From: Nemertoderma westbladi
Taxonomy: Eukaryota; Animalia; Xenacoelomorpha
Reading direction: 5' to 3'
Assembly: GCA_032718475.1 (NCBI GenBank)
Contig: JAUCBJ010008936.1
Location: forward strand, 1-64,000
Length of the DNA: 64,000 bases
Shown here: piece after piece, positions 1,574-59,359 of the stretch
Layout: each line of letters begins with the position of its first letter
Numbering within the stretch: position 1 is the stretch's first letter
Position numbers and translations under genes: made by a program
The notes under the pieces: generated by a model
Seen by the model: only the letters and a program-made list of their open reading frames with translations
Database searches by the model: none
Told to the model about the DNA's origin: nothing

Positions 1574-1860
1574 TAGTTTAGTACGAGTAATGGGAGTAGT
1601 TTGGGCATCAAAAAGTGAGTTGGTCACGGCCAGTTTATCTCCAAAGTTTTTGCGCTATGCATGGGAATAGGTTAGAGGATAGTTAGTTAGGAAGAGACGG
1701 GATCTAGAGAGTCGAACCTGAACTGCTGGAAGGCGGGGGGGGGGGGGGGGGGGTTCGAGAGGTCTGTCCTTCGGCGACATCTAACTGATTTACCCACAGT
1801 GTAATTGGTTACGTAACGGCACTTATTGGGATATATATATATGTATATACGCGAGGCATA

Positions 1861-10329: not shown

Positions 10330-11062
10330 CACCATGGCATATTGTGTGATTATATTCACAACTGATCCGGATCATCATATTAATGTCGAATATACTGGGG
10401 TTGTTTGCACTACGTGGCTGCAGCCAGGTCATAAAACTGTGGCTTACCCTGATTCAACCAGTGAAGTAATAGGAGTTTTTAATGATCTGATGTCTAAGCC
10501 GTTTTCAGATTTGAAATCCCCATTATTTTAAATTCTACTCTAGATGCAATAAAATACAAATTTCTTAAATTTTTAGCGAGGGTGGTTACCCCCTCCCCCC
10601 ACCCACCCCCCCCCCCCCCTTAATATACAACAAATAAGTGAATTCATTTTTTAAACAAAAAATATGCTTCAATCAGTCAAATGTACTATACATATTTGCA
10701 CATAAAATATAAAGCACTCTATCTATTATATTTAGATGAGTTACCCAAGGACAGAAATATAATTGACCTTTGTTTTAGCTAATTTTATTAACTCCGTAAA
10801 TTTCGTATGTAATGGCTCATGTAAGTCTTCCATGAGCTCCTTAATCCTCAACGATAATTCCGTTATTGCTTCGTTACATACTGTAACCACAGTAACCACT
10901 TTCTGACCAACTCGAGATACTGTTTCAACATTATTTGGGTCCATGGGAAAGCCGTAATCATCTCAGAATTTCCAACTATTAGTAGGTTTATCTTTCAGAT
11001 CAGTTGTATGAAAAATATTTTCAAGTTTATCGTAAAAATCATTGATGATGAAAGGGTTTTTT
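10330..11062 (-). mobile_element. Partial copy of a pogo/Tigger-like DNA transposon relic (inverted duplicate of 47266-47620 plus 48940-49310)
   Basis: Near-identical ORF translations at both loci (MAYCVIIFTTDP..., MDPNNVETVSRVGQKVV...), including the same poly-C tract. Confidence 0.7.
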
Positions 11063-12149
11063 ATATATACTTTTTACTTGGAGAAAAACACTTCCTGTAC
11101 GAGCCCACACTTTATACAGTGTAATAACAGTTTTATTGTAATTATATGTTACACACAGTTATTAATTAGAGACAATCACAGAATGCAATTATTAACGAGT
11201 GGGAGACACTCGTCAGAAATAGTGTTTCCACCACGGCTATTTCTCTATCCCCGCTCTCTGGGGGGAAAGAGTCAACACTGGGGCCATAATGGAAAAACTA
11301 CTTTGTCTTATCAATTATCATCTCTGCCATTCCAAGTGGCGCGGGCGGTGGCATTCTGTGATTGGCTCGCTCCTTCCTACATTACAAACCCATCACCATT
11401 AACCAAATAATAACATCACTAGTACTAGTTGGGAGATTGCCAAGATGCCCTTACTTCGATTTCCTACTTATATTATTAATATTGAATCTAAAGTCGTTAT
11501 ATTGAATGGGGCGAGCCTTAAGGTCCTTTTCAACGTTTTGAGAGAGGATAAAATTACTTTGTTGTATATATCATAATTTCTTTCGTTACAAACTCCCCCC
11601 AAAGTTAAGCTTGCTAAACTTTCAACAACAAAAAAAACAAAGAAATGATTTTGTACCAAAACTATAAAACCACCTCATGTTAGGATCAATTAAATTTAGC
11701 AATGATTATATTAGATCATCATTACGATTATCTAAGGACATGCGTAGAACATAGTCAACCACAATTATGAACAAGAATGGTGCAAAGTTGTAACATATCA
11801 ATACGGAATAACGTGAACACTGAAATAGAAACTGAGAACTGATATATCGATATCTTGTACGCTCCAGGCAGCCAGGACGGTAGAAAGGTGCCGGGATCCG
11901 AGGCTGGATAGGTTTATCCGATATGAGTAATCTGGTCGTTCAGTCATTAGATAATTCAGTAGTTAATCGTAAAACATCCAACCGCCGGGCGTACGCAATA
12001 GACAAGAACTACCCAGTCTAAAGACAGGTTTGTTATAAATTTGATAATTATAATAAAAATAGAATACTACATTTTATTACAATAATCGTTTTACATAATA
12101 TGTTTGTTAGAGGATAAAACGTAACGTTATTTCGCCACTTAATTATAGA

Positions 12150-14808: not shown

Positions 14809-15989
14809 GACGTTATAAATTGATACTGACACCGTTTGTAAACTGTAGAATATTAAATAGAGTTATTAAAAGTCTGTTAATATTTAAAAAGATAATCAAT
14901 TATTGATTGTATATAAAAAATCCGCTTTTTTCACTTAAGTTATAATTACCAGTCAACTGGTATGGTACAGCTATAAAGCAATATACTTAATTTGGTGTGC
15001 TCTACGAGTTCTACCGTTTGAATTTTAAATCAATAAATATATATATACAAGAATATGATTATCCATGGTCCAATATGATTATATTATAATAATATATCAT
15101 TAAAATGACTAATAAGGATATTCCCGATGATTGATGTTGAAAAATATATAACTACTCGGATATGCGGTTGTTAATCTAAATCTAAAAACAACACAACGTG
15201 GGAGGATCCTTTGTGAGGATTCTCCCACACCGGGCGCAAAGCATACAACATCAGTATATAGTAAGTGGAGCTTACTCGGAGTGATTTACAACTTCCTAGG
15301 AATTTTATTCTCTGAAAATTGTTTATTTAATTTTCGTTATTCTAAGAATTTTACATAATTTTGTTTTTTACATTTCGTAGCCCGACCTTCCCAAAATTTC
15401 TCCCAATTGGTAACTTCTAGCACTAAATGGTTAAATTTGAAGTGAAAGCAACTGAAATATTCCAATATTCTACAGGGAATTTGTACGTAAAAAAATTTCC
15501 TGTGGACAGATTTGATAAATTTTAGTCACATTTAAATTTTAACTAGTGCTACTACTGTAGCAGGTAGAACATCATCCCAATTCAATGCATGACTACATTT
15601 GAGCAATTATTGCAGTTCTACTACTACTAGTATCGGCATGCTGCACTGCAGCTGCATTTTTAAGAATGCTGTGCCGGCTTGTCGACAAAATTGCGCCGCC
15701 ACAGCTCCCTATCACCCATGACATTTGATAGAGTATCCGCATCTTCAAGGCCAGTGTCTTTTAAGATGCGTCTCAAGAAAGTCATGGGCTGTCCACCATG
15801 CTTATTCACTCCATGAGGCTGCTAAAGTACAATATTATGCAATGGCAGGTCCTCACGGCGAAAGCAATGTCCTGCAAAGCGGAGGCGATTTTGTTCTAGT
15901 GTCAAGCTTGGGGGAACCAATGAGACACCTCCAATGTTATAGAAGCAGCCATGAACTAGGAAAGTTCATGGCTGACCGTAAGATGCTGC

Positions 15990-18333
15990 TGCTACGCTGC
16001 TGGGTCCACTGGCACTGTGTATGGCTGACCATTTGATCTGAGGGCGCTATGCTGCTGGATCCACCGGCACTGTGTGTTACTGACCATTAGATCTGGGGGT
16101 GCTATGCTGCTGGGTCCACCGGCACTGTGTATGGCTGACCGTTAGATCTGGGGGTGCTATGCTGCTGGGTGCACCAGCACTGTGTATGACTGATCGTTAG
16201 ATCTGTGGGCGCTATGCTGCTGGGTCCACAGGCACTTTGTGTGGCTGACCGTTAGATCTGGGGGCGCTATGGTGCTGGGTGCGCCTGCACTGTGTATGGC
16301 TGACCGTTGGATCTGTGGGTGCTATGCGGCAGGGTCCACCGGCACTGTGTGTGGCTGACCCTTCGATCTGGGGGTGCTATGCTGCTGGGTCCGCCGGCAC
16401 TGTGTATGGCGGACCATTAGATCTGGGGCGCTATGCTGCTGGGTGCGCCTGCACTGTTTATGGCTGATCGTTGGATCTGTGGGCGCTATGCGGTGGGGTC
16501 CACCGGCACTGTGTGTGGCTGACCCTTAGATCTGGGGGTGCTATGTTGCTGGGTCCGCCGGTACTGTGTATGGCTGCCCGTTAGATCTGGGTGCGCTATG
16601 CTGCTGGGTCCACCGGCACTGTGTGTGGCTGACCATTAGATCTGGGGGTGCTATGCTGCTGGGTCCACCGGCACTGTGTATGGCTGACCGTTAGATCTGT
16701 GGGTGTTATGCTGCTGGGTCCGCCGGCACTGTGTGTGGCTGACCGCGGAGGGCGCTATGTTGCTGGGTCAGCTGGCACTGTGTATGGCTGATCGTTAGAT
16801 CTGTGGGCTCTATACTGCTGGGTCCGCCGGCACTGTGTATCATGGCTGACCATTAGGTCTATGGGCGCTATGCTGCTGGGTCCACCGGCACTGTGTATGG
16901 CTGACAGTTAGATCTGTGGGCGCTATGCTGCTGGGTCCGGCGGCACTGTGTATGGCTGACCATTAGGTCTGAGGGCGCTTTGCTGCTGGGTGCGCCATCA
17001 CTGTGTATGGCTGATAATTAGAATTGGGGGCGCTAGGCTGCTGGGTCCGCCAGCACTGTGTGTGGCTGACCCTTAGATCTGGGGGTGCTATGCTGCTGGG
17101 TCCGCCAGCACTGTTTATGGCTGATCGTTAGATCTGTGGGCGCTATGCTCCTGGGTCCGCCGGCACTGTGTGTGGCTGACACTTAGATCTGGGGGTGCTA
17201 TGCTGCTGGGTCTGCCGGCACTGTGTATGGCTGCCCATTAGATCTGGGTGCGCTATGCTGCTGGGTCCACCGGCCCGGCACTGTGTATGGCTGACCGTTA
17301 GATCTGTGGGCTTGATGCTGCTGGGTCCGCCAGCACTGTGTATCATGGCTGACCATTAGGTCTGTGGGCGCTATGCTGCTGGGTCCACCGGCACTGTGTA
17401 TGGCTGACAGTTAGATCTGTGGGCGCTATGCTGCTGGGTCCGCCGGCACTGTGTATGGCTGACCATTAGGTCTGAGGGCGCTATGCTGCTTCGTGCGCCG
17501 TCACTGTGTATGGCTGATAATTAGAATTGGGGGCGCTATGCTGCTGGGTCCACCGGCACTGTGTGTGGCTTACCATTAGATCTGGAGGTGCTATGCTGCT
17601 GGGTCCACCGGCACTGTGTATGGCTGACCGTTAGATCTGTGGGTGTTATGCTGCTGGGTCCGCCAGCACTGTGTATGGCTGATCGTTAGATCTGTGGTCG
17701 CTATGCTGATGGGTCCGCCGGCACTGTGTATGGCTGACCCTTAGATCTGGGGGCGCTAGGCTGCTGGGTTCACCCGCACTGTGTATGGCTGACCCTTAGA
17801 TCTGTGGGCGCTATACTGCTGGGTCCGCCGGCACTGTGTGTGGCTGATCGTTACATCTGTGGGTGCTATGCTGCTGGGTCCGCCGGCACTGTGTATGGCT
17901 GACCATTAGGTCTGAGGGCGCTATGCTGCTGGGTGCGCCGGCACTCTCTATGGCTGACCATTAGATCTGAGGGCGCTATGCTGCTGGGTGCGCCGGCACT
18001 GTGTGTGGCTGACCATTAGGTCTGAGGGCTCTATGCTGCTGGGTGCGCCTGCACTGTGTATGGCTGACCATTAGATCTGTGGGTGCTATGCTGCTGAGTC
18101 CACCAGCACTGTGTATGGCTGATCGTTACATCTGTGGGCGCTATGCTGCTGGGTGCGCCGGCACTGTGTATGGCTGACCATTAGATCTGTGGGTGCTATG
18201 CTGCTGAGTCCGCCAGCACTGTGTATGGCTGATCGTTACATCTGTGGGCGCTATGCTGCTGGGTGCGCCGGCACTGTGTATGGCTGACCATTACATCTGG
18301 GGGCGCTAGACTGCTGGGTCCGCCGGCACTGTG
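15990..18333. repeat. 55-bp minisatellite, roughly 42 copies
   Basis: Unit gctatgctgctgggtccgccggcactgtgtatggctgaccattagatctgtgggc repeated head to tail with point variants. Confidence 0.97.
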
Positions 18334-19009
18334 CTATAAGGGAAAATGTTACATTGATAATTTAATTTTATAATTATTAAATAATGATTGAATAATGCAT
18401 TTAATATGAAGAGGCCATATCAACAAGTGTTCTGCGCAAGAACACTGCGTAATTGACTGACTGACTGCTAACTTACAGTGTAATTATTCGGAAAATTTAA
18501 CCATGAAATTATACACATAAAAACAATTGTATAACAAAATAAAAAAGTTGTGATTCATCTAAATTAATTAATAAAGCGAGAGCGTTATATTTTTAACAAT
18601 GTTGGGTACTACATTACTACTTCATTAATAAGTTTGGTATCACACTGAGCAGCCATGATAAGAAACTCAAGCAGAGGTCGAGCACAATCGTCATGCAGCA
18701 CAATTATTATCCAGCTTTAGTTAACAAAGTGTTATTGATTACTTAAACTAGTATACATAAGGAACATTATGAAACACAGTAACACACCAGCAGGGGGTTA
18801 CTTACATTGGAACTATAGTTCACGGAATTCATTAAATGAGAGACTTGACTTGGTTTTTTGTGTCTATTCCGAGCACTATGTGCTGTAGGATGTGATAATT
18901 TGTAGGTCTACACCATGTTTTAGGTGTTTAATATAATAGTATACACAGTAGGTTTAGATACACTATGTACCTAAACCTTTTATAAAAAAAAGGCAGGTTA
19001 GGACGACTG

Positions 19010-21519: not shown

Positions 21520-24082
21520 TTTCGGACCCAGATTGCCACGTGGTTGACGAGCGGCTGGGAAAATCGGAGACTCTTGTTTAGAGAACAGATCCGATATTGC
21601 TCAGTCCGTTTCCAACCGCGCCTTTCTGGTTCTGGAATTTGTGGAGCAAATGACGTCACCACGGACACCACGGTATGATACAGAGGACGTACATGACTGC
21701 ATACAGGGGGTGATGACTGTACCATGTGATGAGGCTCTGTTCCAATGGCAAAATTACACGACACCGGACAGGGGGTTGGACCAGTACCACAATTACAGTT
21801 TGCCATTTGGGAATGACGCCTTTTACTGAACTTAAAACTGACAAAACACTGTGTAGGGACTTTAGTTAGGATACTTTGTGATTCCTCGCTGACTCACCGA
21901 ACTTTACACTAATAGATAGGAACCTGACAGCCAAGACGTTACTGACAGAGGTGATGGGGGATCTAAAAACATGGGTTAAACACAAACTGACACATTCAAC
22001 AGACAAATTAATTCAGGTCAAACTGACTGAACTCAATGTACCGAAGACAGATGGGGTGTTCCATTTTTTTTGTCATGCTTTATTCCTGTTCCATATATAA
22101 CACAATTAGTCATTGGTTTATTATTGGTCATTAGTCTATACAGTTTTCTGTTATAAACAAATTAGACTTAATAACATATTAGTATATTATTTACAACAGT
22201 TATTTTTTTGATTAAACAACGTAGTAAGTAGTTCAAGTAGTATAGCACATTTCATCGTGACATGAATAAACAACGGTTAACTTAATCTCACCATACGAGC
22301 TGTTAACAACCTGTGAACTATAAGTACAGGTACAGAAATCGTCATACATTAAAATGGTAAAAACACATTTTCATTTTTAAGTTATTCATATTCGTTCGTT
22401 TTATTATTATACTATTATTTTGGTTTAGAAAGACAGCTGCAAAGTGCAAATTAAGTGTTTTACAAAGTTCCCATCCACTTTGCTATATTATTTTTGTTGC
22501 CGTTATCCCTACACCAGGGGGAAAAACGCCGATGCTGGAGACGTGACTTAACAGACCACCGAGCCCCGGCCAGTCACCGGATATTGATTGTGGGGAGGGA
22601 ATATTTTCTGAGATGCAAGTTTGCGGTTGATAAAAAGCTGCATTAGTTGGATATACTCTTTAATGTAACTTCTTATAGTTGAAACCTGATTAAGAATAAT
22701 TTTGGGCTTCCCCAAATCAATATACACCAAATATTCACAATAATTATACACGATAATATAAATCCCTACGGTATATTATTTAATAACCCACTGTTCGCTC
22801 AGAATTTTAGCCTACCTAATGTTCCCCAGATTTTCCCTCGGTCCCAGTCTTAGTGCCGTAGTGTCGGTGTCGGTCGACCCTGTCGCGTGTCCGTTCCACC
22901 CCTCACGAACCCCGAAGGGAACGATCATCGAGAACCAGCACGGCTTGGCTAAGGGTCGGTCCAGTCGGTAGACTCTGTCGCGTATCCGTACCACCCCTCT
23001 CGAACCCCGAAGGGTTCGGTTATCGAGAACCAGTACGGCTTGGCTAGGAGTCTGTCGTGTCGGTGGACCCGTTCGCGTGTCCGTTCCACCCCTCACGAAC
23101 CCCGAAGGGTTCGATCATCGAGAACCAGAACGGCTTGGCTAGGGGTCCGTCGGTTCATCACAGAAACCCAACCACCTAGGCTTTCCGAGTCCGTTTCAGG
23201 CTCGTAGTCGCTTCGGCAGCCGAGAAACTGCTCCGAACAGTCGGTAGGCCAGTAGAGTCTAGTCGAGTCTAGTCCTTTGTCTTTCGACCCCATCGCGTGT
23301 CCGTTCCACCCCTCACGGACCCCGAAGGGTTCGATCATCGAGAACCAGTACGGCTTGGCTAAGGGGTCTGTCGTCGGTTCCCGTCGCAAATCCCAGTACA
23401 AGCAGTCAGCGTTCCGAGTTCTTTTCAGTCTCGTAGTAGCTGCCGTTGACCAGAGACCGCTAAGGGCAGTTCTCGTCAAACCCGTCCTGTGGCCAGCCCT
23501 TTCGCATGTCCGTCCCACCCCTCACGAACCCCGAAGGGATCGGTCATCGAGAACCAGTACGGCTTAGGTCAGGGGGCAGTCGTTAGTTGGCCACCCGTTC
23601 GCGTGTCCGCTCCACCCCTCACGAACCCCGGGGTTCGATCATCGAGAACCAGAACGGCTTGGCTACTAAGGGGCCGTCGGTGCCCGTCGCAAATCCCTGA
23701 CACAAGCAGTCAGCGGTCCGAGTTCTTTTCAGTCTCGTAATGGCTGCTGTTGGCCAGGGACCGCTAAGGGCAGTCCTTGTCCTTTAGGCCTGGCGCATTA
23801 CCAAATCCACCCCTACAGGCAGCAGGAAGTTGGCCAGGGCCTAATAGTACTCAGGCTAACCTGAATACTGCTTGCATTTTCCATCCCCCCTGGCCCTTAT
23901 AACTATGAAATTATTCCCGTACCCTGTAAGTTGCCCCAAAGTTCGCCCATAAATCGCCCCCAGTTTATTGAATGTGCCCAAAACCCATGGTCCCGCACCC
24001 AGTAGCAATATCGGAATAATCAATTTTAATAAAATACAAAAATATTCAACTCGCGTTATGGAAAGTTGAAATACCGCAAACA
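21520..24082 (-). repeat. Putative 3' LTR of element B (~2.5 kb), containing the structured repeat array
   Basis: Starts TGTT right after a G-run PPT; TATA-like gttataag at ~23896-23903 (-). The distal end is uncertain because there is no clean AACA terminus. Confidence 0.5.
22876..23785 (-). ncRNA. Array of six ~82-nt structured RNA units (A1-A6) interspersed with three copies of a second structured unit (B1-B3)
   Basis: A units at 22876-22957, 22971-23052, 23065-23148, 23286-23368, 23496-23577 and 23589-23675. On the minus strand A1-A5 have a c(UUCG)g tetraloop (lost in A6). Closing stems covary (gaccc/gggtc vs gactc/gagtc; ccgtac/gtacgg vs ccgttc/gaacgg). Confidence 0.65.
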
Positions 24083-24248
24083 GTCCCCCCCAATGACCTT
24101 CGTGAAGTCTGTCGGTCGATTGAGTTTGCGTAGGTCATTCCCAATATAAAAAACCCAAATTTAATATTGCATAGTTTTTTAATTAATTTGGCCTAGAGTT
24201 TGTATAAAAATAAATGTTCGATAAATGTTCCTGGAATATCCCAATCCA

Positions 24249-26831
24249 CTATTTCTTTTTCTGGTAAGCCTTTCGTCTCTTCGCCCGTCGACTCTCATCG
24301 ATCGCTATGGCTGGTAGAGGAGCGTCAACATCCATTGTGAGTAACACTTCGGCTTGTCTCCTGGCGGCTCTTCCTTTCGAAGGCATCGGGATCATGTCGG
24401 TTCGTCTTTCCTCTAGGAACCATTCTCCGTCACCGAACTCCTCTTTATACGAGTATAATCGTCTAATAACTTCGAATGGGCCGAATAATCCAGCGCTCAG
24501 TAGCAGATCCACGTAATGGAAAGGTAGCGTGGCCGACGTGTGGAGGCGTTCCGGGAAGGAGAAATATCCGCACGCCATCTCCTGCGCGATATTCCGAGCG
24601 TTTCTCCGAAACTTGGTCTTTAAGTGGCTGTTTGCGTATGTCTCAAACATGACCATATTGCCCATAGCGGTTACGTCTTTGGTAGGACATTTGATATAGC
24701 AGCGGGGGCTAGCGGAATGTCCACGGAAACCGCACGTGGTGCAGAGGTTATAAAGGATCGGACAGACCGAAACGTCGTGGCCCGATATCGCGCAGTATGG
24801 GCAATAGAGTATCCCGAGGAGCTGGAGGCAAGAATCGGTAACCCGATTCCTTCTGCCGCGTGGGCACTGCTCCGAGCCGCAGTCGCCGCATACCTCCAAC
24901 TGCGTTTCTCGACCGGGGAATATCGGAATCGGGACGCCGACGTAGTATTCGAGTCGTCGGTCGCTCTTCGGAATATTCTCGGTGGTCGGTAGCCCGCGGA
25001 ATGCTAGGCTTTTGCGTAGTATGTTCTCGCTCCGATAACCCTCTTTGTGTCCCGCTGGTCTCAACTCGGATGACCGTTTCTGGCGGTGGATCCATTCAGT
25101 TTGCTCGGCGTACCAACGGGTTAGTCGCATAGGGTCCTGAGGAACGGCGGGTGTAGTAGCCACCGCTGGTCGGCGAAGAGGTGCCGGGGTTTTCGACGGG
25201 GGGATACCGAGGAGATCGTCGGGTGTCGGCGCATCGCTGGGGCCTTCCTCGACCAGTATCGCTGAGCGGGTCCGTTGGTGGCTGGTACTCGGAATCTCCG
25301 ACGACCAATCTTCGCCGCCCGGGAAAGGATACGGGGATAACCGTTGGCATATGTCGCCGAAGTCGCTCAATGCAGCTGTAGTGGCTACCTCTCTCGCGGG
25401 GCTACCGGAGCCGCGTGGGGTGTAGACGCCTGCTCTCTTCATCGGTTCGGCCGAGGCAACCCGTTTGGCGGCCGGTCCGTACGCGGCCTCCGGCTCGAGT
25501 TGTCGCTTCGGGGTGGAGAGTAGAACACCCTCGTTTAGCCATATCTCTTCCCCTTCCGAAGAGATCAGAGGCTCCTCCGCACCGAGAAGTTCGGTAATCG
25601 TAGGAATGTCGTAAGGTCCGCTCTCGTCCCAGGAATCGATAACGGCGGGCGTTTTCGATTCTCCCGGTGTAATGTTCTCGACCGCTTTAAACGCATGGTT
25701 TATAACCTCGTTCCAGTCGTAGTCGACGAAGGAAAGGGGGACCGCCGTAATAAGGTTATCGAGAGTTCTACAGATAAACTTAGCGACGGTGTAGCACTCC
25801 ATAACGACGTAGATATAGCTCCGTCGATCGGGATTCTCCCACCTTTGGTGTATCGTCCACTTCCGATCGACGTCCTTCCATCGACCCTCTCGCTCGCTCT
25901 TTATCTCTAATCCCGGGTTTCCGCCGTATATTTTATTATAGTCCCGGTATTTCTGGGGTTTGAAGTCGATACCGCCGTTTAGCACAGCGAGGTAGCCGAT
26001 CCCGGATTTCGTCGGTCTCACTTCTTGGAATCCTCGCATGAATTCGGCGAATCTTAACCAGGCTAGCAGCGTTTGAGTGTCGATGCAATGGCTAAGTGCG
26101 TTGAGGTCGTTTCGTCGGTTTCTTCCTGCGGGAGCGTTCGCGTAGTCGTTCCGGACGTCCGCCTTGATATCCGACCCGATTTTAATGACGTCGAAGTCGA
26201 AGAGGATCTTTTGGATTTCCGGAGGCAGCAACCAGATCGCTCCGGCTGCCCGCACTTCCTGTCTGGGTGTCGGGAATATTTGGCACACCAGTACCAAACC
26301 GTCCAGGGTTCCGAGGACGATGACTAAGGATCGACCGTATTCTTTCGCCCCGTACTTTTCCTGGTAGTCGTCGCGGTTTTGGATAATCGATACGCGTTCC
26401 TCTCGAAGCGTCGCCGTACACTCTGACAGGTTTCCCCAGTGGGCGAGGTACGTACTCTTGTCGTCGACGAAACTTTGACATCTCACCAACGTAATCGCTT
26501 CCGAGGTGGGCGTCGCGTTTCCCTCGTTGTCGTAGATCAAACATCGGGATCTGTAGACGCTCTGCCAGAACGTTTCCCAAAACGACGAATCGTCCCCTCC
26601 GGTTGCCTTTGCGTTCCGAGTTCTTTTCAGTCTCGTACTAGCATCGGCTAACCGGAGGGCTTGTAGATTCTTAGAATCCGGTCCCTCTCGCCCGGTGAAT
26701 TTAATGACTCGCACGTTCTCATTTAGCAGGGTGCTCCAATTTGTATCAAAGTCAGGGGATCCGGGTTGCGAATATTCCAGTAGATCTATCGTGTTACGTA
26801 ATTCGCCGATAATTTGGCGATTTGGGTCCAT
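24249..26831 (-). CDS. ORF3 of element B: DEDDy-like 3'-5' exonuclease domain plus zinc knuckles (860 aa)
   Basis: CLIYDNEG, LPPEIQKILFDFDVIKIGSDIKAD, CIDT, KSGIGYLA...DFK, YVVME; CGDCGSEQC, CPYCAISGHDVSVC, CTTCGFRGHSASPRC. Homologous to 1861-5568. Confidence 0.8.
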   Translation of the reverse strand: MDPNRQIIGELRNTIDLLEYSQPGSPDFDTNWSTLLNENVRVIKFTGREGPDSKNLQALRLADASTRLKRTRNAKATGGDDSSFWETFWQSVYRSRCLIYDNEGNATPTSEAITLVRCQSFVDDKSTYLAHWGNLSECTATLREERVSIIQNRDDYQEKYGAKEYGRSLVIVLGTLDGLVLVCQIFPTPRQEVRAAGAIWLLPPEIQKILFDFDVIKIGSDIKADVRNDYANAPAGRNRRNDLNALSHCIDTQTLLAWLRFAEFMRGFQEVRPTKSGIGYLAVLNGGIDFKPQKYRDYNKIYGGNPGLEIKSEREGRWKDVDRKWTIHQRWENPDRRSYIYVVMECYTVAKFICRTLDNLITAVPLSFVDYDWNEVINHAFKAVENITPGESKTPAVIDSWDESGPYDIPTITELLGAEEPLISSEGEEIWLNEGVLLSTPKRQLEPEAAYGPAAKRVASAEPMKRAGVYTPRGSGSPAREVATTAALSDFGDICQRLSPYPFPGGEDWSSEIPSTSHQRTRSAILVEEGPSDAPTPDDLLGIPPSKTPAPLRRPAVATTPAVPQDPMRLTRWYAEQTEWIHRQKRSSELRPAGHKEGYRSENILRKSLAFRGLPTTENIPKSDRRLEYYVGVPIPIFPGRETQLEVCGDCGSEQCPRGRRNRVTDSCLQLLGILYCPYCAISGHDVSVCPILYNLCTTCGFRGHSASPRCYIKCPTKDVTAMGNMVMFETYANSHLKTKFRRNARNIAQEMACGYFSFPERLHTSATLPFHYVDLLLSAGLFGPFEVIRRLYSYKEEFGDGEWFLEERRTDMIPMPSKGRAARRQAEVLLTMDVDAPLPAIAIDESRRAKRRKAYQKKK

Positions 26832-27388
26832 ATTTACGATTATATCCGTTACAAATTAGATCAGTTAATTATAAGTCCAGAAAGTCTGAAACTATAGCGA
26901 TAGCAGAATAATTCAGTTTTTATTTAATTCAGTTTATCAAATAATATTGCTATATAGACATCTATCATCTTATTGCTAATACATTCAGCATTTACAGTTA
27001 CTATAGCTATACATAATATCCAACCAGTTTTTTTATGACTTTTTTGTCCTTTCTTTTTTCCAATTCTTTTCTTTGACCTTTTTTATGCCTTTTTTTTTGT
27101 CTTTTTTCATTTCATTATTATTTCATCTCATTTCATTTATTTCCACATATATTTCAACATTTAGTTCCACCATTTATTTCACATTTATTTATTTCCACAT
27201 CATCATTGGGTTTATAGCCCCCCGGCTATCATCATTTGTTATAAGCGCAGCACCATGGTGCGCATCATTTCATTTTCATCAGCATACGCGTCATCATTCA
27301 AGTTTATAGTAGAGTTGTCTGATCCTTTTCATCATTTCCAACTATATTCAATCATTTTCTTTGGTTAATCTTTGTCGTGGAAGGGGTG

Positions 27389-27798
27389 TTACGCGGCAAT
27401 CTGGGATCTACAGCTGGACTCGTTACACCGCCTACGCCCCAAACTGCGCACGTAATGGACAATGACGACGCTGGGAGTGAAGTCACGTGGATGCACCATG
27501 GACCCACCAGAATAACACTCCCAACAACATAAAGCTCAGTCGACGAAGTCATGTGGGATGGGGTTACGCAACATTCTGGGATCTACAGCTGGACTCGTTA
27601 CACCGCCTACGCCCCAAAATCCACGTAACGGTCCCACCAGAATAACGCGACTGAGAAACATAAAACCCTCTATCGTCGAAGTCACGTGGATGCACCATGG
27701 ACCCACCAGAATAACGGGATAGAGGGGGTGTTGCGCGGCAATCCGGGATCTACAGCTGGACTCATTACACCGCCTACGCCCCGAACTGCGCACGCAAC
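27389..27798 (-). ncRNA. Modular structured RNA repeats (three X hairpins, three Y hairpins, one X nested in a Y) in the pol-ORF3 spacer of element B
   Basis: X at 27389-27455, 27563-27629, 27730-27798; Y at 27472-27523, 27535-27655, 27666-27726. Cores are nearly invariant while the closing stems differ in sequence but stay complementary; G-U pairs favour the minus strand. Confidence 0.65.
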
Positions 27799-28078
27799 GG
27801 ACAACATAACATACTGCAATGAATACAATGAATTCCACTTCAAATCTTTTCCATTTCCAATAATCCAATATCGTTGGTCCCAATGACCAAAATCAGGGTA
27901 AACAATACATAAACGACCCTGCGTCAGCCGAAACATCTGCAGGGTGATGCTGGACTCCACATAACACACGAGGAAACACAAATACCATTGCGTGGTTACA
28001 GTTGGTTTAAAGGGGGTCCATAATTCGTTGTCGATAAATCACAGTTTTATAAGAGTTTGTCAACATGATGAGAAGGGT

Positions 28079-31000
28079 TTACACGGTTTTGTAATTGTCA
28101 CCAATGTCTGCAGCAGGATCCGTAGTAGGGAACTTATCACCTCTTGTAGAATCACCACTGTCATTGCCTTCAAGAAGGCACAGCTTCTGGATAGGGCGTT
28201 GGTAGTGGCCCTTTGCCGTTCGTATCGTCACAGTCCTCGCAAGTCCGTCTTTGCTTGGGTGTATGGTCACGACCCGCGCCACAGGCCAGTGAACGCGGTC
28301 TTTGAGATCTTCTTTAACTAGTACCATGTCGCCAACTGCGAAATTCCGGTAGGTGTTGTTCCATTTCCTCCTGGTCCGGAGGGTTATGAGGTACTCCTGG
28401 GCCCAAATTCTCCACCAATGCGCTGCCAACGCTTGGGCCTTTTTCCAGTTTGTATGTTTCGCGATCTCGTTGGGATCCGGGAACATGGTTTCCGGGAGGA
28501 GGTGGGTTTTGGGTCTCCCCAGTAAGTGGTTAGGAGTGAGGGGTTCCAGGTCTGTGGGGTCGTCGCGGATAGGAACAATGGGTCGGTTGTTCAGGGTAGC
28601 CGTGATCTCGCAGAATGTTGTGCGGAGGGTGTCATGGGTTACCCGGGTATCGCCTAGAGCGACGCGCATGGATCGTTTCACTAGGTCGATCAGTTTCTCC
28701 CATACCCCGCTCGTATGGGGTGCTAAGGGGGTCAGGAAGTGCCACTGTATCTGGTGTTCCTTCCAGACTTGGGATGCAGTGTTATTGGTAAACCATCCCT
28801 CAATCGCCTCTCTAAGTTCTCTTTCTCCTCCCACGAAGTTTGTACCATTATCGGAATACATGTGGCGGCATGTCCCGTTGTTCGCCACGAACCGACGCAG
28901 AGCGTTGATGAATGCGTGTTGTGTCAGATTTACCACGATATCTAAGTAAATTGCCCTAGACCTTAGGCAGGTGAAGATGGCTCCCCAGCATTTGATGTTG
29001 GATCGTCGTTCAATAACTGTGAACGGTCCGAAACAGTCCACTCCGGTGACGTAGAATGGCGGGGAATCCGCTTGTAGACGGGTGGCTGGTAAGTCGGCCA
29101 TCTTTTGGGTGATTGGTGGCGCTAGGTAACGTCTGCAGGTGAAGCAACGTTTCAACACTTTCCGGATCAGTGGCTGGATGTGAGTGATCCAATATCTTTG
29201 TCTTATATTAGCTATAATCCAATTCTGTCCTGCGTGGTGGTTGTCCTCGTGACATTGTAGAATTAATAGCTTAGCTAGTGTCGACGTTCCGGGCAGAAGC
29301 GCCGGGTATTTAACCTCATATTCGACCGGGGCGTTTGCCATCCGGGTATTCAGTCGGATCAGTCCGTCCTCTCCCATCATTGGTCTCAGTTGGTAGACTG
29401 GGCTGTCCGGTTTCAATGTTTTGCCCGCACTAAGTTGTTCCCATTCATCGGGGAAACTTTCTTTCTGGACATATCTAACAATACACTTCTCCGCGATAAT
29501 AAGTTCTTGTATATTCCGTTGAACTATCGGTTTGCTGTTTTTCCACCGTAGGAAGTTACGAAGGGTTATAACGTGGTGGACGAGCCGTCTCATGGATGAA
29601 GTTCGCTCGATCAACCGATGTAAAGACGCCGCTAGTTGAGTGATCGTCGCGACGTTATAGTGCCTGCCCGAGTCCTTTGCAGGCTCAGTCAGGCAACTAT
29701 AAATTTCCACCGCGTTGCTTCGATGGATTTTACGGATCTCTTTATCGTCCTCGGAGTATTTTCCACTATCGAGTTCGGGGTCGAATCGGGTACTCCATGT
29801 TAACTGTGGCTGCCGTAGGAATTCCGGGCCTGTAAGCCAGAGTTTACTTTTACCGAGTTGTTTTGGGGTGGCGCCTCGGCTTGATAAGTCCGCTGGGTTT
29901 TCCTTCCCGTTCACGTGATGCCACTGTTCTCGGCCGGTACACTGTTTAATCTCTGTGGCTCGGTTTGCAACAAACGTGGTGTGACGCCGTGATGGAGAGT
30001 GGAGATAATAGAGAACTATACTCGAATCTACCCAGAAGTGTTGAGATTCTATGGGGATCCGTAGGTTCCGCATGGCCATGCGATTCTGTCTTACTGCCCA
30101 AACTGCAGCTTGTAGCTCGAGTCTTGGAATCGTTGCTACGAATTCCCCGGATACTGTCTTTGCTTTGGAGAATAAGAAGCTTGTATCGCCGTTTCCATCG
30201 CTACTTAGTCTCCGTAAGAAGGTTACTACGCCGATTCCGGTATTTGAAGCATCCGAAAAGGTGTGGAGCTGGAAGATATCGGTGGGCAGTTTATCGAGGA
30301 AGAACGGTCTAGGTATCCGCATAAGATGTAGGTGTTCGAGCTGCTCCGTCCATTTTCTCCATTTGACGCTAAGGTATGGGGGAAGCTCTTCGTCCCATTC
30401 CAGTCCTTCTATCCACATTTCCTTAATCAGGTTCATTCCGGCCAAGGTTACTGGAGATATGAAATTTAGTGGGTCGAAGATTGCACTTTTTATCGACAAA
30501 CATCCCCTTTTTGTCATAGGCTTGGGTAGGGGTTTATATTTGAAGATGAATTCATCTGATTCTATGTCCCATTCAATCCCGAGTACACGATGTTCCACAT
30601 CCTCCGAATACATCTTGTTATTTTCCAGCCGGATGTCCTCCGGAAACTTTTCCATAAGTGTTTTGTCGTGGGATCTGAACTTCACGAGTGGAAACCCTCC
30701 TTTCTTTAGACATTCTACCATCCCCATTGCTAGCTGATACGCCTCATCTACATTATCCGCGCCGGCGCATCCGTCGTCCACGTAGAAGCATCGTCGAATG
30801 GTTTCTATGACGGTTGGAGGGAACTCGTTTTCGCACATGGTTGCCGTCCTCTTTAGCATGTCACTGCATGCTACCGGCGAGTCCTTAGCGCCGAAGATCC
30901 TGACGACCATACGCATTACGTCTACGTCCTTTATCGTGAGTTGGCTAATCTCCTGTTGAGTAAGCGTTTTATCCGTCCATAGGATACGTAGACAGTCCGA

Positions 31001-32878
31001 GTCTCTTGGTAATGTACGAACTTGATGAAACATGGCCTTGATGTCACAGGTGAATGCTACCCGGTTTTCCCTGAACCTGATCAATACGCCGATGAGTGTG
31101 CTATATATGTTGGGTCCCGTATAAAGTTGACTGTTTAGGGATTCGCCCTGGTACATAGCGGCAGCATCATTTACCACTCGGATTTTCCCGCCTTTGCGGG
31201 CTTCTACTACATAGTGGGTCGGGAGATAATATGTTCTTTTACCACCTTGCAGTTCGTTCCGTGGTACCATTTCTGCTAATCCATCATCGAGATATCCTTG
31301 GATTACGGTATTATACTTCTCCTTTATCTCGGGTTGGTCATTCAGCCGGCGTAGAATCCCTTTAAGTCGCCTAAGTGCCATGCTGGCGTTGTTTGCCATT
31401 GGTTTGTTTGGGTCCTTCCATAACATAGGTGAACACCAATGTCCGTCTTTAAACGTGGCCTGGTCGAGAACGTCCATACAATATTGGTCCTCTTCGGATG
31501 GGTTTTCGTCCTTTTCTGCGAACTCCTGGGTCTCCAAATTAAAATATTTCGTCATTTCTCGTTGGGTTTTCTCGGTTTCCAGGAACAAATCCTCGTCAAG
31601 ATCCGAAGCTGAGCAATAACCCACAGAGGTTACATTCTCTTTAATCTGACATTTAGGAAGGTAGGTATAGGTGTCCGTAGTTTCCTCCTTAATGCCGCAG
31701 AGTGTCCATCCCATTATTGTTCGTTCAGCATAAAATCCATCATCCTGGTTTATAGATCGAGCGATATCTCCGGTGGGGATGTGTAGTTCCGGTGTATCAA
31801 GTCCGATCAGTAGGGTGATACGGTTCACGTCCAACTGCGGACACCTCAGGTCTACATCGTCTCGGTCCAATTGTATGAGGGGGGCGTACTCGGCTGATTG
31901 TCGGAACCGCACCCGGAGGTCTGTGTGTACCAAGGCGTTCTTGATGGTTAACTTAGCCGTTTCGTAGCCCTTCATCACTCCTTCCATCTGGAGTTGCACC
32001 TCCCCGGACTCTACTTCTTTGTTATCGGTGATGGTTTGTATGGGCCGTTTACAAGGTTCATATTCTAGGCCGAGTTGCTCGAGGAAATCCCGGTCGATGA
32101 TGGTTCCGTCGGACCCGTTATCGAGGAACGCGAGTGTCGTCAAAGATTTGCCGACTCCTTGGATCCTTACTGGGATCACCTTTGCGAAGACCATGTAGCG
32201 GCGATTTATAAGATTAATCGTGGCCGAAATATTGGTTACTTGTGGTGTATCGGTGTAGATTTTAAACGGGTTGGTTTCTCTCCGTTGGGTTGTCCGGGTC
32301 CCTTTGAAGACGTGGTTTGTTTCTCCTCTTCGCCTGGCTTCGATCCGAAAGGGGAGGGTAGTAAAATCGAAGTTCGCGGGGATGTGGAGGAGCGTGTGAT
32401 GGCGTTGGTCGTTACAGACAGCACAGCATGATCTTTGGTCGCACTCCCGAACATAGTGACCTGTTCCAAGACACCGGAAGCATCCTCGGTGTTTCATTAT
32501 CGCCTCGAAGCGTGGGACGAGTTCGGCGAACTGAAACTTTCTGCAGAATTCCACTTTGTGTTTCTCCCCACAGAAGAGACAGAGCAGGGAATTTGCGATG
32601 CCTTCTCTTTCGGGTGCCCAACTCGCGAGATAACATGCCCATTCCTCAGCGGATGTCGGTTCCTCGTAGTCTTCGTCGTCGGAATCCTCGGCCATGGTAA
32701 TGGCCATCGTACTTACCGGTGGGGGGCGGAATCTCGGTTTCGGAGGGGTTATCTTACTCCTGGAGTTGCTCTCTATTCCGTCCAACTTTGCGAGACTTTG
32801 TTTTGAAAACATCGAGTCATTCATGGCTTCGGAGATATCGTCCAGGAATGCCGACATTTCAAGGAAGCTAGGTTCACG
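28079..32878 (-). CDS. pol: BEL/Pao Gag C-terminus (three Zn motifs), aspartic protease, RT, RNase H and integrase
   Basis: CLFCGEKH/CFRCLGTGH/CAVC...HHTLLH, FLDNGS, FYVDD, HTFSDAS, TIPRLEL, GVDCFGP, YSDNGTNFVG. The frame is open upstream of the Met at 32857 (REPSFLE) up to the breakpoint at ~32879. Confidence 0.96.
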   Translation of the reverse strand, partial: REPSFLEMSAFLDDISEAMNDSMFSKQSLAKLDGIESNSRSKITPPKPRFRPPPVSTMAITMAEDSDDEDYEEPTSAEEWACYLASWAPEREGIANSLLCLFCGEKHKVEFCRKFQFAELVPRFEAIMKHRGCFRCLGTGHYVRECDQRSCCAVCNDQRHHTLLHIPANFDFTTLPFRIEARRRGETNHVFKGTRTTQRRETNPFKIYTDTPQVTNISATINLINRRYMVFAKVIPVRIQGVGKSLTTLAFLDNGSDGTIIDRDFLEQLGLEYEPCKRPIQTITDNKEVESGEVQLQMEGVMKGYETAKLTIKNALVHTDLRVRFRQSAEYAPLIQLDRDDVDLRCPQLDVNRITLLIGLDTPELHIPTGDIARSINQDDGFYAERTIMGWTLCGIKEETTDTYTYLPKCQIKENVTSVGYCSASDLDEDLFLETEKTQREMTKYFNLETQEFAEKDENPSEEDQYCMDVLDQATFKDGHWCSPMLWKDPNKPMANNASMALRRLKGILRRLNDQPEIKEKYNTVIQGYLDDGLAEMVPRNELQGGKRTYYLPTHYVVEARKGGKIRVVNDAAAMYQGESLNSQLYTGPNIYSTLIGVLIRFRENRVAFTCDIKAMFHQVRTLPRDSDCLRILWTDKTLTQQEISQLTIKDVDVMRMVVRIFGAKDSPVACSDMLKRTATMCENEFPPTVIETIRRCFYVDDGCAGADNVDEAYQLAMGMVECLKKGGFPLVKFRSHDKTLMEKFPEDIRLENNKMYSEDVEHRVLGIEWDIESDEFIFKYKPLPKPMTKRGCLSIKSAIFDPLNFISPVTLAGMNLIKEMWIEGLEWDEELPPYLSVKWRKWTEQLEHLHLMRIPRPFFLDKLPTDIFQLHTFSDASNTGIGVVTFLRRLSSDGNGDTSFLFSKAKTVSGEFVATIPRLELQAAVWAVRQNRMAMRNLRIPIESQHFWVDSSIVLYYLHSPSRRHTTFVANRATEIKQCTGREQWHHVNGKENPADLSSRGATPKQLGKSKLWLTGPEFLRQPQLTWSTRFDPELDSGKYSEDDKEIRKIHRSNAVEIYSCLTEPAKDSGRHYNVATITQLAASLHRLIERTSSMRRLVHHVITLRNFLRWKNSKPIVQRNIQELIIAEKCIVRYVQKESFPDEWEQLSAGKTLKPDSPVYQLRPMMGEDGLIRLNTRMANAPVEYEVKYPALLPGTSTLAKLLILQCHEDNHHAGQNWIIANIRQRYWITHIQPLIRKVLKRCFTCRRYLAPPITQKMADLPATRLQADSPPFYVTGVDCFGPFTVIERRSNIKCWGAIFTCLRSRAIYLDIVVNLTQHAFINALRRFVANNGTCRHMYSDNGTNFVGGERELREAIEGWFTNNTASQVWKEHQIQWHFLTPLAPHTSGVWEKLIDLVKRSMRVALGDTRVTHDTLRTTFCEITATLNNRPIVPIRDDPTDLEPLTPNHLLGRPKTHLLPETMFPDPNEIAKHTNWKKAQALAAHWWRIWAQEYLITLRTRRKWNNTYRNFAVGDMVLVKEDLKDRVHWPVARVVTIHPSKDGLARTVTIRTAKGHYQRPIQKLCLLEGNDSGDSTRGDKFPTTDPAADIGDNYKTV

Positions 32879-32879
32879 T

Positions 32880-34757
32880 CAGAAGTCGCTCGACAACAGC
32901 AAGAATTCTGCCGACAACGACGAGAAATGGAGGAACAAGCTCAACTTCTAGTGATGCAGGCAGCAGTAGAGGAAGAGAAGCTACGCGTTGCGAATATAGT
33001 GAGAATCTCTCATCTACAGGAACAAGCTGAATTAGAAGCAGCTGAAGTAGAAAGGTTAGAGGTAGACATTGCCCGACAAGCGGCAGCGGCAGCGGCCGAG
33101 TCAGAGCGACAAGCGGCAGCGGCGGAATTAGAACGAGACAGGTTAGTTTCGGAAGCACGGGCCGAAATGAAAACACGGCAAATAAAAGCTCAATCCGCTA
33201 TACGACAAGCAGAGTTTGAGGCGCAACAACGACAAACGGAACAACGAGAGAAGACAGCTAAACTTCATTTCGAACTCGAGAAGAAGGCGAGAGAATTAGC
33301 GAACGCTGAGGAAGATCTGGATCAAAAGGCCCGCGATCGATCGATGAGATCTCGAGACGGACATGACTTGGACCAGATAGAGGTAAGACATCGCCAAATT
33401 CAGGAACGAAAGAAGGAAGGAAGCGTAGGAGCACCCGGACGGGAACGACAATTAGTAAAAGACTTGTGTCAACGATTCCCACAGGTAACTCATATGTTTG
33501 CACCGGTTACGACTAAGGAACCTGTTTCGATTGCGGGTAGTAGTAACATTTCTCCTATCCATGGTGCGACGGAACACAGGTTTGTTATTCCGGACGAGTT
33601 TACACCGCCAAGAGCAACGTCGTCGCCTATTCCGAGGGTCAAGGTAAGTAACCCACCGATTACAGATCGTAGTAGTTTATTGACCGGACCTGCACTACTG
33701 ACGACAAAACAGGTGAGTCCACCGTCGACACCTAAACCCATTACACACTACGCTTACCCAATGACGTTTCGACCAACAAGGCCTTTGGATTCAAATGCTG
33801 TCATTCGCCCACCGATTCAGTTTACATCGCAATCTACGACTTCGAGGAAGACTTGTGAGCCTACCGAACAACGGAGAACAGTGGAGACGCGACCATTCAA
33901 CCAGTTTACATCGCAATCTACGACTTCGAGGAAGACTTGTGAGCCTACCGAACAACGGAGAACAGTGGAGACGCGACCATTCAACCAATTTACATCGCAA
34001 TCTACGACTTCGAGGAAGACTTGTGAGCCTACCGAACAACGGAGAACAGTGGAGACGCGACCATTCAACCAATTTACATCGCAATCTACGACTTCGAGGA
34101 AGACTTGTGAGCCTACCGAACAACGGAGATCAGTGGACGATGTTCCGAAACGGAATGTTAGAATTCGTACGACGCAACGGACGCGAGCACGTCGACCACC
34201 ATATCCGGATGATAGTAGTACTTCGAGCGAATCGGATTACCCGAAACGCGAGGTATTTAGAACAGGGGCGGCCGATGAATATAAACGCGAGCGTTCAGAC
34301 AACTCCTTTGCAGACAATCCTCCACAGACTACACCAACACAGAAGGCGTTACAACCAACGGACGCAATTAGTACACAACAGTTCGCCGACATCCTGCGAC
34401 CAGTTGTCAATAAGTTGGCTCAGATCGAGGAACGTCTGGAGGAAGGTTACACCGACAGTTCGAGAAATTCCGAATTCGAACACAATAGACACCCGAAGGA
34501 ACCACAAAGACCGGTACCTTCAAACCCCACATCGTATCAGGGAAAAGCGCCAAGAAGGGATATCAACAAGGTTACCAACCAAGGACGCGAAACTCTGAAC
34601 GTTGCCGAGGAGATAGCGAAATTCGCAGCCAGACAAGGATTGCCGGTACAACAACCACCGAAGTTTTCAGGTAGCTCAAAACACTGGCATACTTTCGTAG
34701 ACTATATCGAATCCCAGATCGCCGTGTGCGCCTTTACATCACGGGAGAAGTTCAATT
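32880..34757 (+). pseudogene. gag: N-terminal half of a BEL/Pao gag, inverted relative to the adjacent pol
   Basis: Coiled-coil region, Pro/Ser/Thr-rich linker and PPKFSGSSKHWHTF (start of the BEL capsid-like domain). The frame is open from ~32880; gag similarity appears to end at REKFNF. Confidence 0.8.
33818..34138 (+). repeat. 84-bp in-frame tandem repeat (~3.8 copies) inside gag
   Basis: 28-aa unit QFTSQSTTSRKTCEPTEQRRTVETRPFN with near-identical DNA. Confidence 0.95.
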
Positions 34758-34759
34758 TC

Positions 34760-35006
34760 CAAATGTGGTTATTCTACAAGATGGTCGATCTGTTCATTTA
34801 CAGGATGTAAAACTTGTTCATAGTGGTTTCGTTTGAGGGGGAAGTGTGTGAGGTGTGTCTTTGTGAGGTTTTGGTGTTGGGTTTTGTACTGGTGGCTGTT
34901 ATCTTTGTATATTGATTAGGCCTATCTGCTAGTGCCGTTTATTAGTGTATTATCTATATGTAGTATGAAGTATAGTACCAGTATATAAATATCAGATGTT
35001 ATAACA
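34760..35006 (+). mobile_element. Relic 3' end of a Gypsy-like element (integrase tail, PPT, short LTR)
   Basis: NVVILQDGRSVHLQDVKLV resembles a Gypsy integrase C-terminal motif; gagggggaag then TG at ~34845; possible end ataaCA at 35006. Confidence 0.4.
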
Positions 35007-45738: not shown

Positions 45739-45766
45739 TAAGTCCGACGCTAGAGGGACACCTAAG

Positions 45767-45946
45767 TTTACTTGGTCTTTAAGATATTGGTGGGCGATCT
45801 GAATATCTGACTTTCAAAGTAGGATACGTTTGCCGTTTGATCTCCACCCCCAAAACAACAAAAGTTAAAATTCTTATAAACCTGCAGCATGGCGGCATTG
45901 CCAATATGTCGTTTCCATTTGGCAACAGTAGGTACAAACGGGTTAA
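45767..45946. mobile_element. Terminus of a piggyBac-type (TTAA) element truncating the neighbouring transposase
   Basis: ...ggtacaaacGGG|TTAA at 45930-45946, exactly where similarity of the 45768-46523 ORF to transposases stops. Confidence 0.4.
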
Positions 45947-46523
45947 AGATGGCAAACGCTTCAGTCAATGTCATTATCAAATGCCGTTTTTGTTTTTTCA
46001 GTTTTTGACCTTCCACTATAACTGTAACCACATCAGCTTTCCCTGGCGAAATACGTGAAGTCTCATCATTCGAATAATATTCGACAATGGTGTTAATTGT
46101 ATCTTGATCAATCCCACTGTTAATAGTTTTCGCTTTTCCTGGCTTTATGAGAGCGATTCCCTCGGACATGGCGAGTTTCCTTATAACTTCAGACTTCTTG
46201 CGTGGACTCTTAGGCATCGACCTTTTAGCTCGCTGAACGGCTTTACATAGTGATTGAATCGTAGTATACCGACTTGAAGGCGACATACTTGTGGTGGCAT
46301 TAGAAGTGGCAGTTTGAGAAAGTTTGGCAGATTTTAGTTTCCTGAATTTTTGACCTCGTAATCTAGTCTCGACTCGAAGTTTATTCAAACTTTCCATTGA
46401 TAATTCTTGGCGTTTTTTGCTCTTCCTCTCTCTATCTAGCCGAAGAAACTCATCTTTATCCAATACCTTCCGAAGTTGAATATATTCTTTCTGTCTCTCT
46501 GCATTTGATTTCGGTTTTCCCAT
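45947..46523 (-). pseudogene. N-terminal part of a DNA transposase, Sola2-like
   Basis: PKSPRKKSEVIRKL and YYSNDETSRISPGKADVV...QKRHLIMTLTEAFAIF; the family assignment is from memory of this motif. Confidence 0.5.
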
Positions 46524-56945: not shown

Positions 56946-57066
56946 TATTACGTTGGTTTTGTACAGTAGATTTTATAGCAGTTTTTAACTAGTGATTGTA
57001 ATAAAAAAATGGTAAATGTTTTTTTAAATATAATTTAGGCTGTTTGTTTTAAGTCCGGGTCACCAA

Positions 57067-59350: not shown

Positions 59351-59359
59351 GGTAGAGCA

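Follow-up and report, generated by a model that had tools for sequence, protein, structure and literature searches.

Repeated Sense-Strand Hairpins in a BEL/Pao Retrotransposon of Nemertoderma westbladi and a Candidate Reader Encoded by the Same Element

Introduction

Do repeated hairpins in the long terminal repeat (LTR) of an animal retrotransposon act as RNA signals, and if so, what would read them? The question is raised by the 64,000-nucleotide stretch of the Nemertoderma westbladi genome analyzed here (contig JAUCBJ010008936.1, positions 1 to 64,000; hereafter the window), whose minus strand carries a BEL/Pao retrotransposon, element B, with an array of hairpins in its LTR. An earlier note on this DNA, made from the letters alone, had described the array as six units on the element's sense strand and had proposed that they form a scaffold, decoy, or small-RNA precursor that may work with an exonuclease encoded by a third open reading frame, ORF3. 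We find that the array is real and probably selected as RNA structure, and that it belongs to a set of 13 hairpins in three families (six A, four B, and three C), every one of them more stable on the sense strand. Nine of the 13 lie in the LTR, three before ORF3, and one within ORF3. The reading that we favor, with a probability of roughly 45%, is that the hairpins would act in cis as multivalent landing sites on transcripts of the element itself, the ORF3 protein being their most likely reader.

Results

Three hairpin families

The best sign of selection on RNA structure is found in unit B, a second hairpin family that fills the long spacers that the earlier note had called dissimilar. The B apex is constant over four copies, one of them in a coding frame, and the flanks have mostly diverged. 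Between the lower stems of B1, B3, and B4 only 7–18 of 32 letters agree; even so, the 3' flank that fits each 5' flank best in pairing is its own (0, 6, and 1 of 1,000 shuffles are as good, and the true assignment is the best of 24 permutations). All seven core pairs (7/7) are invariant, so the core itself gives no covariation signal. Beside helices predicted without G-U pairs, G-U outnumbers A-C in unit B by 8:0 (p = 0.003, with B1 and B2 non-independent), an excess that points to RNA rather than DNA palindromes; the stems of B4 have no G-U pairs.

A model of unit A recovers exactly its six units in the 64 kb, with scores of 89.7–113.1 bits that are high by construction and a next match at 12.7 bits. 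The six minus-strand units are present where the earlier note had placed them, and the c(UUCG)g cap that it reported for five of them is seen in 5/6. In sense-strand order the LTR reads B1-A1-A2-B2-A3-B3-A4-A5-A6; with three hairpin families and diverged flanks in the element, the array is not a simple satellite, as had been claimed. Units A1 to A6 are all more stable on the sense strand, with folding z-scores relative to shuffled sequences of -1.5, +0.8, -1.4, -3.0, -2.9, and -0.5, so that two of the six stand at about -2.9 or lower. A sliding fold scan with 120-nt windows picks out the B units and not the A units. The A units show 87% identity by column, with broken pairs in several of them. 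Paired cells in the alignment amount to 92% (11 of 500 shuffles are as high), and for the closing stems, which had been said to change sequence while they keep pairing, the true partner is indeed the best one (2 of 720 permutations are as good). Covariation within unit A alone is modest. The compensatory change that had been cited, ccgtac/gtacgg versus ccgttc/gaacgg, does not hold up, since the pair in question (alignment columns 28 and 72) is unpaired in three of the six units. Nor is there the single internal loop that had been drawn: a 2-bp helix divides the 8 × 8 loop in all six predicted folds.

The three unit-C hairpins occupy the spacer between pol and ORF3. Their z-scores are -2.1, -2.4, and -2.8 on the sense strand and -0.5, -0.3, and -0.4 on the antisense strand, and their lower stems pair with their own partners (4, 14, and 1 of 1,000 shuffles are as good). 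Pairs changed on both sides number 3 of 24, a count reached by 15 of 500 shuffles. An identical 38-nt repeat lies between unit-C copies (27479–27516 and 27678–27715). Taking the hairpins together, we consider selection on their RNA structure likely.

Absence of the array from other copies of the family had been named among the findings that would refute the proposal. The array is present in them: depth is found in all array bins in three of three DNA runs. Depth here is summed contig depth from three DNA runs of three studies (X1, X3, and X4), together with X6, which is only presumed to be RNA; all are contigs. Depth is not equal to copy number, and the mapping of short contigs may run across units. 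In X6, one contig links 22921 to 23636 and keeps B1 plus a single A unit, and eight more low-depth joints skip parts of the array. Unit number may therefore be variable between copies, which fits a dosage-type element, neutral turnover, or contig collapse.

Rfam covariance models run over 22300–28100 gave no match to any unit at E up to 10, and two matches (E 1.2 and 8.8) fell outside the units. Scans of viral contigs and of prokaryote genomes with unit-A patterns each came back with 0 loci. All 15 pattern matches in metagenomes (15/15) were rejected as isolated chance matches without the remaining unit.

Table 1. Features of element B and its hairpins in the window
Feature	Position	Strand	Basis or remark
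3' LTR, 1,588 bp, TGTT at 24082 to AACA at 22495	22495..24082	-	Ends read in sequence; purine run before start; depth steps
Unit A1, without UUCG cap; basal loop matches full loop-E pattern	23586..23679	-	Model search, fold
Unit A2, basal part degenerate, weakest fold	23491..23582	-	Model search, fold
Unit A3	23282..23373	-	Model search, fold
Unit A4	23062..23152	-	Model search, fold
Unit A5, K-turn pattern fails in this copy	22967..23057	-	Model search, fold; 23021 departure absent from aligned contigs
Unit A6	22872..22962	-	Model search, fold
Unit B1, with a long stem, a loop-E-like loop, and a T-loop-like UGAAA cap	23682..23775	-	Fold z -4.8
Unit B2	23378..23471	-	Fold z -2.4
Unit B3, diverged G-U-rich lower stem	23150..23250	-	Fold z -1.5
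Unit B4, within ORF3 reading frame, codons 66–88	26594..26660	-	Fold z -5.9
Three unit-C hairpins, pol–ORF3 spacer	27380-27462, 27555-27637, 27722-27804 (span 27380..27804)	-	Repeats, folds
Two additional single hairpins, of which the first is a 10-bp stem that begins ~30 nt past the TATA-like box	23780..23870	-	Fold z -2.5
Non-consensus TATA-like box, no more than a candidate promoter	23901-23895	-	Does not match TATA[AT]A
Candidate poly(A) region downstream of array: two ATTAAA hexamers (22784, 22664), G/T-rich tract (22745-22710) after the first	22659..22784	-	
ORF3, 868 codons, exonuclease-like domain and CCHC zinc knuckles	24249..26855	-	Family profile, motifs
C-terminal part of gag, and pol with protease, Pao peptidase A17 region, integrase zinc finger, and DUF5641	28079..32878	-	Pfam
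Coiled-coil, gag-like ORF, head-to-head with pol, overlapping pol start by ~70 nt	32807..34810	+	"Gag-like" by eye

Structural motifs

The standard kink turn (K-turn) as defined in PMC8191799 combines a C:G pair, a 3-nt bulge that begins with a purine (RNN), tandem G-A/A-G pairs, and a non-Watson-Crick 3b:3n pair. Such a turn is one possible reading of the asymmetric loop in unit A. A descriptor made of the RNN bulge and the tandem G-A pairs matches 5/6 A units, 0/6 of their antisense strands, and at most 7 of 2,000 shuffles, with three other matches in the window; C:G occupies position -1 in all six units. At 23021, where A5 leaves the pattern, another base is read in 28,274 of 28,274 depth of X1, in all of X4, and in nearly all of X3, and the A5 exception thus looks private to this copy. 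At 23716, where this copy also leaves a motif pattern, 15,185 of 22,782 depth of X1 reads another base.

In loop E, the pattern A-N-U-A stands opposite G-A-A between helices. Three of the four B units and one of the six A units have this pattern, and the canonical bulged G is confined to B4 and A1. A UGAAA cap closed by C-G is present in all four B units, with one extruded base that differs in about half of the aligned depth at 23193. The cap pattern alone is common in shuffles (103–416 of 2,000), and the loop-E and T-loop patterns jointly, found in 3/4 B units, are reached by at most 6 of 2,000. UGAAA, of the YGNRA class, is the commonest T-loop in the riboswitches for flavin mononucleotide (FMN) and for cobalamin (Cbl), where two bases are extruded (bioRxiv 10.1101/2022.12.26.521914). 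Small motifs of this kind are cautioned to yield false positives without covariation (PMC12510878).

Patterns of the A box and B box of RNA polymerase III (Pol III) promoters occur together in 3/6 A units (at most 3 of 2,000 shuffles), with starts only 25 nt apart; the B box is lost in the other three, and the sense strand lacks a T4 run between 23983 and 22636. In transfer RNA (tRNA) genes the two boxes are spaced about 45 nt apart. A tRNA or short interspersed element origin of the units was rejected on this 25-nt spacing and because no tRNA was found. The same two results speak against a Pol III type-2 gene or tRNA-derived repeat, which would have boxes at tRNA-like spacing and a cloverleaf. 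Known self-cleaving ribozymes were rejected as well, with no Rfam match over 22300–28100.

ORF3 and the companion element A

The candidate exonuclease motifs of ORF3, assigned by eye, are D109-x-E111, D233, and Y349-x3-E353, and a splice-acceptor-like site precedes the frame at ~26885. ORF3 has no Pfam match, word-index searches returned no homologue, the single sequence failed against the RNase D profile, and NCBIfam and PHROGs gave only weak, unrelated matches. A full search found seven distant relatives (P0125–P0131), all unnamed or "hypothetical." They form a family with an exonuclease-like domain and several CCHC knuckles that is known from metagenome contigs only and is missed by Pfam; searches for related loci with pol, P0126, and P0125 found none. 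The motifs D-x-E, D, and Y-x3-E/D align in five of eight domain rows, both window proteins included, and the last of the motif residues in ORF3 is E, not D. A six-row family profile, from which the two most fragmentary of the eight rows were omitted, matches RNase D with an hhalign probability of 51% (E 1.6e-4), and the RNase D profile scores 34.9 compared to at most 23.7 in 40 decoys. In the Protein Data Bank, the eight-row profile finds the zinc knuckles of Lin28 (E 0.0009) and EXD2 (E 0.021). AlphaFold2 models were unusable (predicted confidence, pLDDT, of 32 and 37), and a fold search with the second gave no match. What stands of the RNA-binding exonuclease of the earlier note is an exonuclease-like domain and zinc knuckles, weakly supported by these profile matches; on sequence grounds the exonuclease label is plausible and the protein is possibly catalytic.

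A second BEL-like element, element A, lies on the plus strand at 1 to ~8000, with an integrase that runs to 1092 by eye and a probable start, at 6068, of an LTR for which no end was found. It encodes an ORF3 homologue of 1,259 codons (1789–5568) that is 26% identical to that of element B over 174 amino acids (E 5e-11). The model search of the 64 kb finds no A or B units in it. A different 16-nt hairpin apex recurs in element A as four exact copies, at 1517, 2634, 4228, and 5725 on the plus strand, two of which lie in its ORF3 in different codon phases. Their diverged lower stems pair best with their own partners (best of 24 permutations; 5, 8, 89, and 44 of 1,000 shuffles). This is the design of unit B: a constant apex, a free but paired stem, and copies both inside and outside ORF3. 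The B copy in ORF3 and the parallel arrangement in element A fit a link between hairpins and ORF3. Rfam has no match to the element A hairpins, whose loop can also be read as a pyrimidine-G-pyrimidine triloop and may then recall Roquin-binding elements.

Element B and the position of the array in its transcript

Element B is a multicopy BEL/Pao LTR retrotransposon. BEL/Pao elements are confined to animals according to PMC3601003, and the LTR end motifs given there agree with those of element B. Its polyprotein frame of 1,599 codons matches PF05380 (Pao peptidase A17, E 1e-37), PF18701 (DUF5641, E 2e-29), an integrase zinc finger, and a protease in Pfam, and zinc knuckles can be seen by eye in the gag-pol frame. 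A purine run sits between ORF3 and the LTR. At ~22,500, summed depth in X1 and X3 goes up from a few hundred into the tens of thousands, and at ~24,090 it halves; these steps confirm both LTR ends and a repeated family. Domains, LTR ends, and depth steps thus agree on the placement of the array inside a BEL LTR. The 3' quarter of the LTR (22505–22930) has roughly double the depth of the remaining LTR and may be common to related or non-coding families. No second LTR of element B was found in the 64-kb window, so that this copy lacks the LTR pair with its target-site duplication.

The TATA-like box that had been placed just upstream of the array exists as a non-consensus match ~220 nt before the first A unit. 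A leader that began there would hold 10 AUGs, five of them inside A units, which argues against a scanned leader. In addition to the candidate poly(A) region downstream of the array, one AATAAA stands upstream at 23969. The array may lie in a long R (the region repeated at both transcript ends) or in U3 (the part unique to the 3' end), and less likely in U5 (the part unique to the 5' end); a long R or U3 would put it in the 3' end of transcripts. Where the earlier note proposed leader or R, long R therefore survives as one of three placements and the scanned leader is disfavored.

The gag-like ORF has no Pfam match and contains an in-frame 84-nt tandem repeat (33734–34137). Depth of the family is near background past ~34,850, and six contigs depart from the window sequence at 34757. 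Given the opposite gag-like frame and the end of family depth nearby, this copy of element B appears rearranged and cut at ~34757, probably by an inversion plus deletion that left the frames head-to-head.

Other features of the window

A Gypsy-type element at 52166–57301 on the minus strand has 241-bp direct repeats that are 99% identical and a pol split over two frames. The same strand has a fragmented, Helitron-like region with a PIF1-like helicase (43472–46535). Tandem arrays include 55-bp satellites at 15898–18346 and 58204–58533 and 24-bp repeats at 50507–51287 and 59080–59376. Long inverted copies of a dispersed repeat (96–98%) lie ~37 kb apart at 10332–11064 and 47265–49311.

Discussion

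If the hairpins are landing sites, transcription of the LTR would take in the array, with the 3' ends of genomic RNA and ORF3 RNA as its most likely setting and a leader as a possible further one. Unit A would bend at its K-turn and unit B would present a loop-E and T-loop surface; ORF3 would bind several hairpin copies at once, and its binding could mark the RNA for protection, export, or other handling, as Rec does on RcRE. The B4 copy within ORF3 might then give feedback on ORF3's own message. As the partner of the hairpins, ORF3 is a tentative candidate, with chances that we put slightly below even. The decoy or small-RNA precursor acting in trans, which the earlier note had entertained, is less likely than a role in cis, because copies are also found in coding sequence and in the pol–ORF3 spacer.

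Several results weigh against this reading. Four of the six A units are unremarkable compared to shuffles in fold z, and A pairs changed on both sides (3/27) are reached by 47 of 500 shuffles, which is not significant. The lower stem of B2 is no better than shuffles (273/1,000), and the test of G-U versus A-C is not significant in A (8:5), C (7:2), or element A (5:3). Judged by z, the antisense strand of the element A hairpins does at least as well as the sense strand. The motif descriptors were written after the sequence had been seen. The K-turn register and a plain-pairing register score alike on the unit A alignment and the energy model prefers the plain one, so the K-turn stays a prediction. 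The two elements have no hairpin family in common, and the co-occurrence of hairpins with ORF3 comes to two cases, which do not prove a link with no ORF3-less control beside them. Finally, support for ORF3 as a DEDD-type exonuclease, at an hhalign probability of 51%, is weak.

The hairpins might be real RNA signals and yet have another reader. The nucleocapsid of Gag could use them as dispersed packaging or dimerization sites, with ORF3 a bystander; the copies are spread across the LTR, the pol–ORF3 spacer, and coding sequence, and the gag-pol frame has zinc knuckles of its own, by eye. However, with an acceptor-like site at 26885 the LTR and ORF3 copies would also be on the spliced ORF3 message, a poor design for genome-selective packaging that would leave only unit C specific to unspliced RNA, and we think a Gag reader unlikely. 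Host proteins are a further possibility, recruited or soaked up by the units either in cis or through released small RNAs or Pol III transcripts: an L7Ae-family protein at six putative K-turns, for instance, or an export or transport adaptor. Such a protein would find a K-turn pattern with C:G at -1 and a non-Watson-Crick 3b:3n pair, as described in PMC8191799, and Egl requires two bent stem-loops per transcript (PMC13186709). Pol III transcription has in its favor the A and B boxes in 3/6 A units and the absence of a T4 run over 23983–22636, but the boxes are 25 nt apart, the B box is lost in 3/6 units, and no tRNA was found; release of the copy in coding sequence would moreover destroy that message. 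We regard a role through host proteins as improbable.

A neutral history would dispense with function altogether, with chance hairpins amplified by template jumps and their stems tidied by strand switching at inverted repeats. Variable unit number in contigs, which contig collapse could mimic, is what such a history would leave, as are A units that are 87% identical by column with several broken pairs, and B4 stems without G-U. The invariance of the B apex in four copies with mostly diverged flanks, one in a coding frame, speaks against it, as do the G-U bias in B and the presence of three families in one element with a like design in element A; we give it a distinctly small chance. Tandem G-A pairs occur in hammerheads too, and the units could be an undescribed self-cleaving ribozyme. 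Compact, repeated, motif-rich RNAs in LTRs have a precedent in retrozymes (PMC4918200), but no Rfam family falls on the units, which are unbranched hairpins that by eye lack hammerhead, twister, pistol, and hairpin-ribozyme cores. A ribozyme is the remotest of the explanations considered.

Landing sites read by ORF3 remain our preferred account. It can be extended, as a long shot, to a self-recognition module of a BEL/Pao lineage, in which an element exonuclease with zinc knuckles would be matched to family-specific RNA "barcodes" made of motifs of the ribosome and riboswitch type (K-turn, loop E, and T-loop) and repeated in the LTR and in the message of the nuclease itself. Under this scheme, RNAs without a barcode would be trimmed by the protein and those with one spared or escorted, and barcodes would evolve separately in each family. 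The locus supplies short candidate RNA ligands of 60–95 nt together with a candidate protein, and element A in the same genome is a built-in specificity swap. If the K-turn, loop-E, and T-loop readings are true, an animal transposon builds a repeated array with the structural motifs of ribosomes and riboswitches.

Vertebrate retroviruses have well-charted RNA signals that steer export, stability, and packaging; for BEL/Pao elements we found no description of such signals, nor of such an array in their LTRs, in the literature searched, to which most subscription papers and Repbase did not belong. Among known pairs of response element and protein, RxRE/Rex and RRE/Rev are comparable to RcRE and Rec. 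The RcRE of HERV-K(HML-2) sits in U3 and hence only in the transcript 3' end, and, as PMC6916052 describes it, it is a structured LTR RNA paired with the element's accessory protein. The pairing in element B is a candidate of the same kind. Unlike RcRE/Rec, element B is modular, with three repeated hairpin families, and it is an invertebrate-type BEL element whose candidate protein is nuclease-like with zinc knuckles. The bdelloid LTR retrotransposons Juno and Vesta carry an ORF3 with a DEDDy exonuclease whose role for retrotransposons is described as still open (PMC5408684). There, as in element B, pol and the 3' LTR flank an exonuclease-like third ORF in which one acidic motif residue is altered. 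Juno and Vesta are not BEL/Pao elements, however, the word "hairpin" is absent from the available text of that article, and the family of the element B ORF3, which Pfam fails to detect, carries several CCHC knuckles.

Single motifs also have counterparts. Unit A resembles the standard K-turn of PMC8191799 in its bulge and tandem G-A pattern and differs in its competing plain-pairing register. Unit B resembles the YGNRA T-loop in its UGAAA closed by C-G, with one extruded base as opposed to two in FMN and Cbl riboswitches (bioRxiv 10.1101/2022.12.26.521914). Like retrozymes (PMC4918200), element B has a structured RNA motif in its LTR; unlike them, it has no hammerhead and is a coding element. 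Egl-BicD localization signals, including the ILS of the I factor, are bent stem-loops that have to be present twice per transcript, have a reader with an exonuclease-homology domain, and are put to use by a retrotransposon (PMC13186709), features that the locus would share. Egl is nevertheless a host protein with further RNA-binding domains, the units here are GC-rich, and ORF3 retains acidic residues at all three exonuclease motifs. Against this background it is the combination that stands out: three families rich in motifs, one copy that lies within ORF3, and a parallel arrangement in element A.

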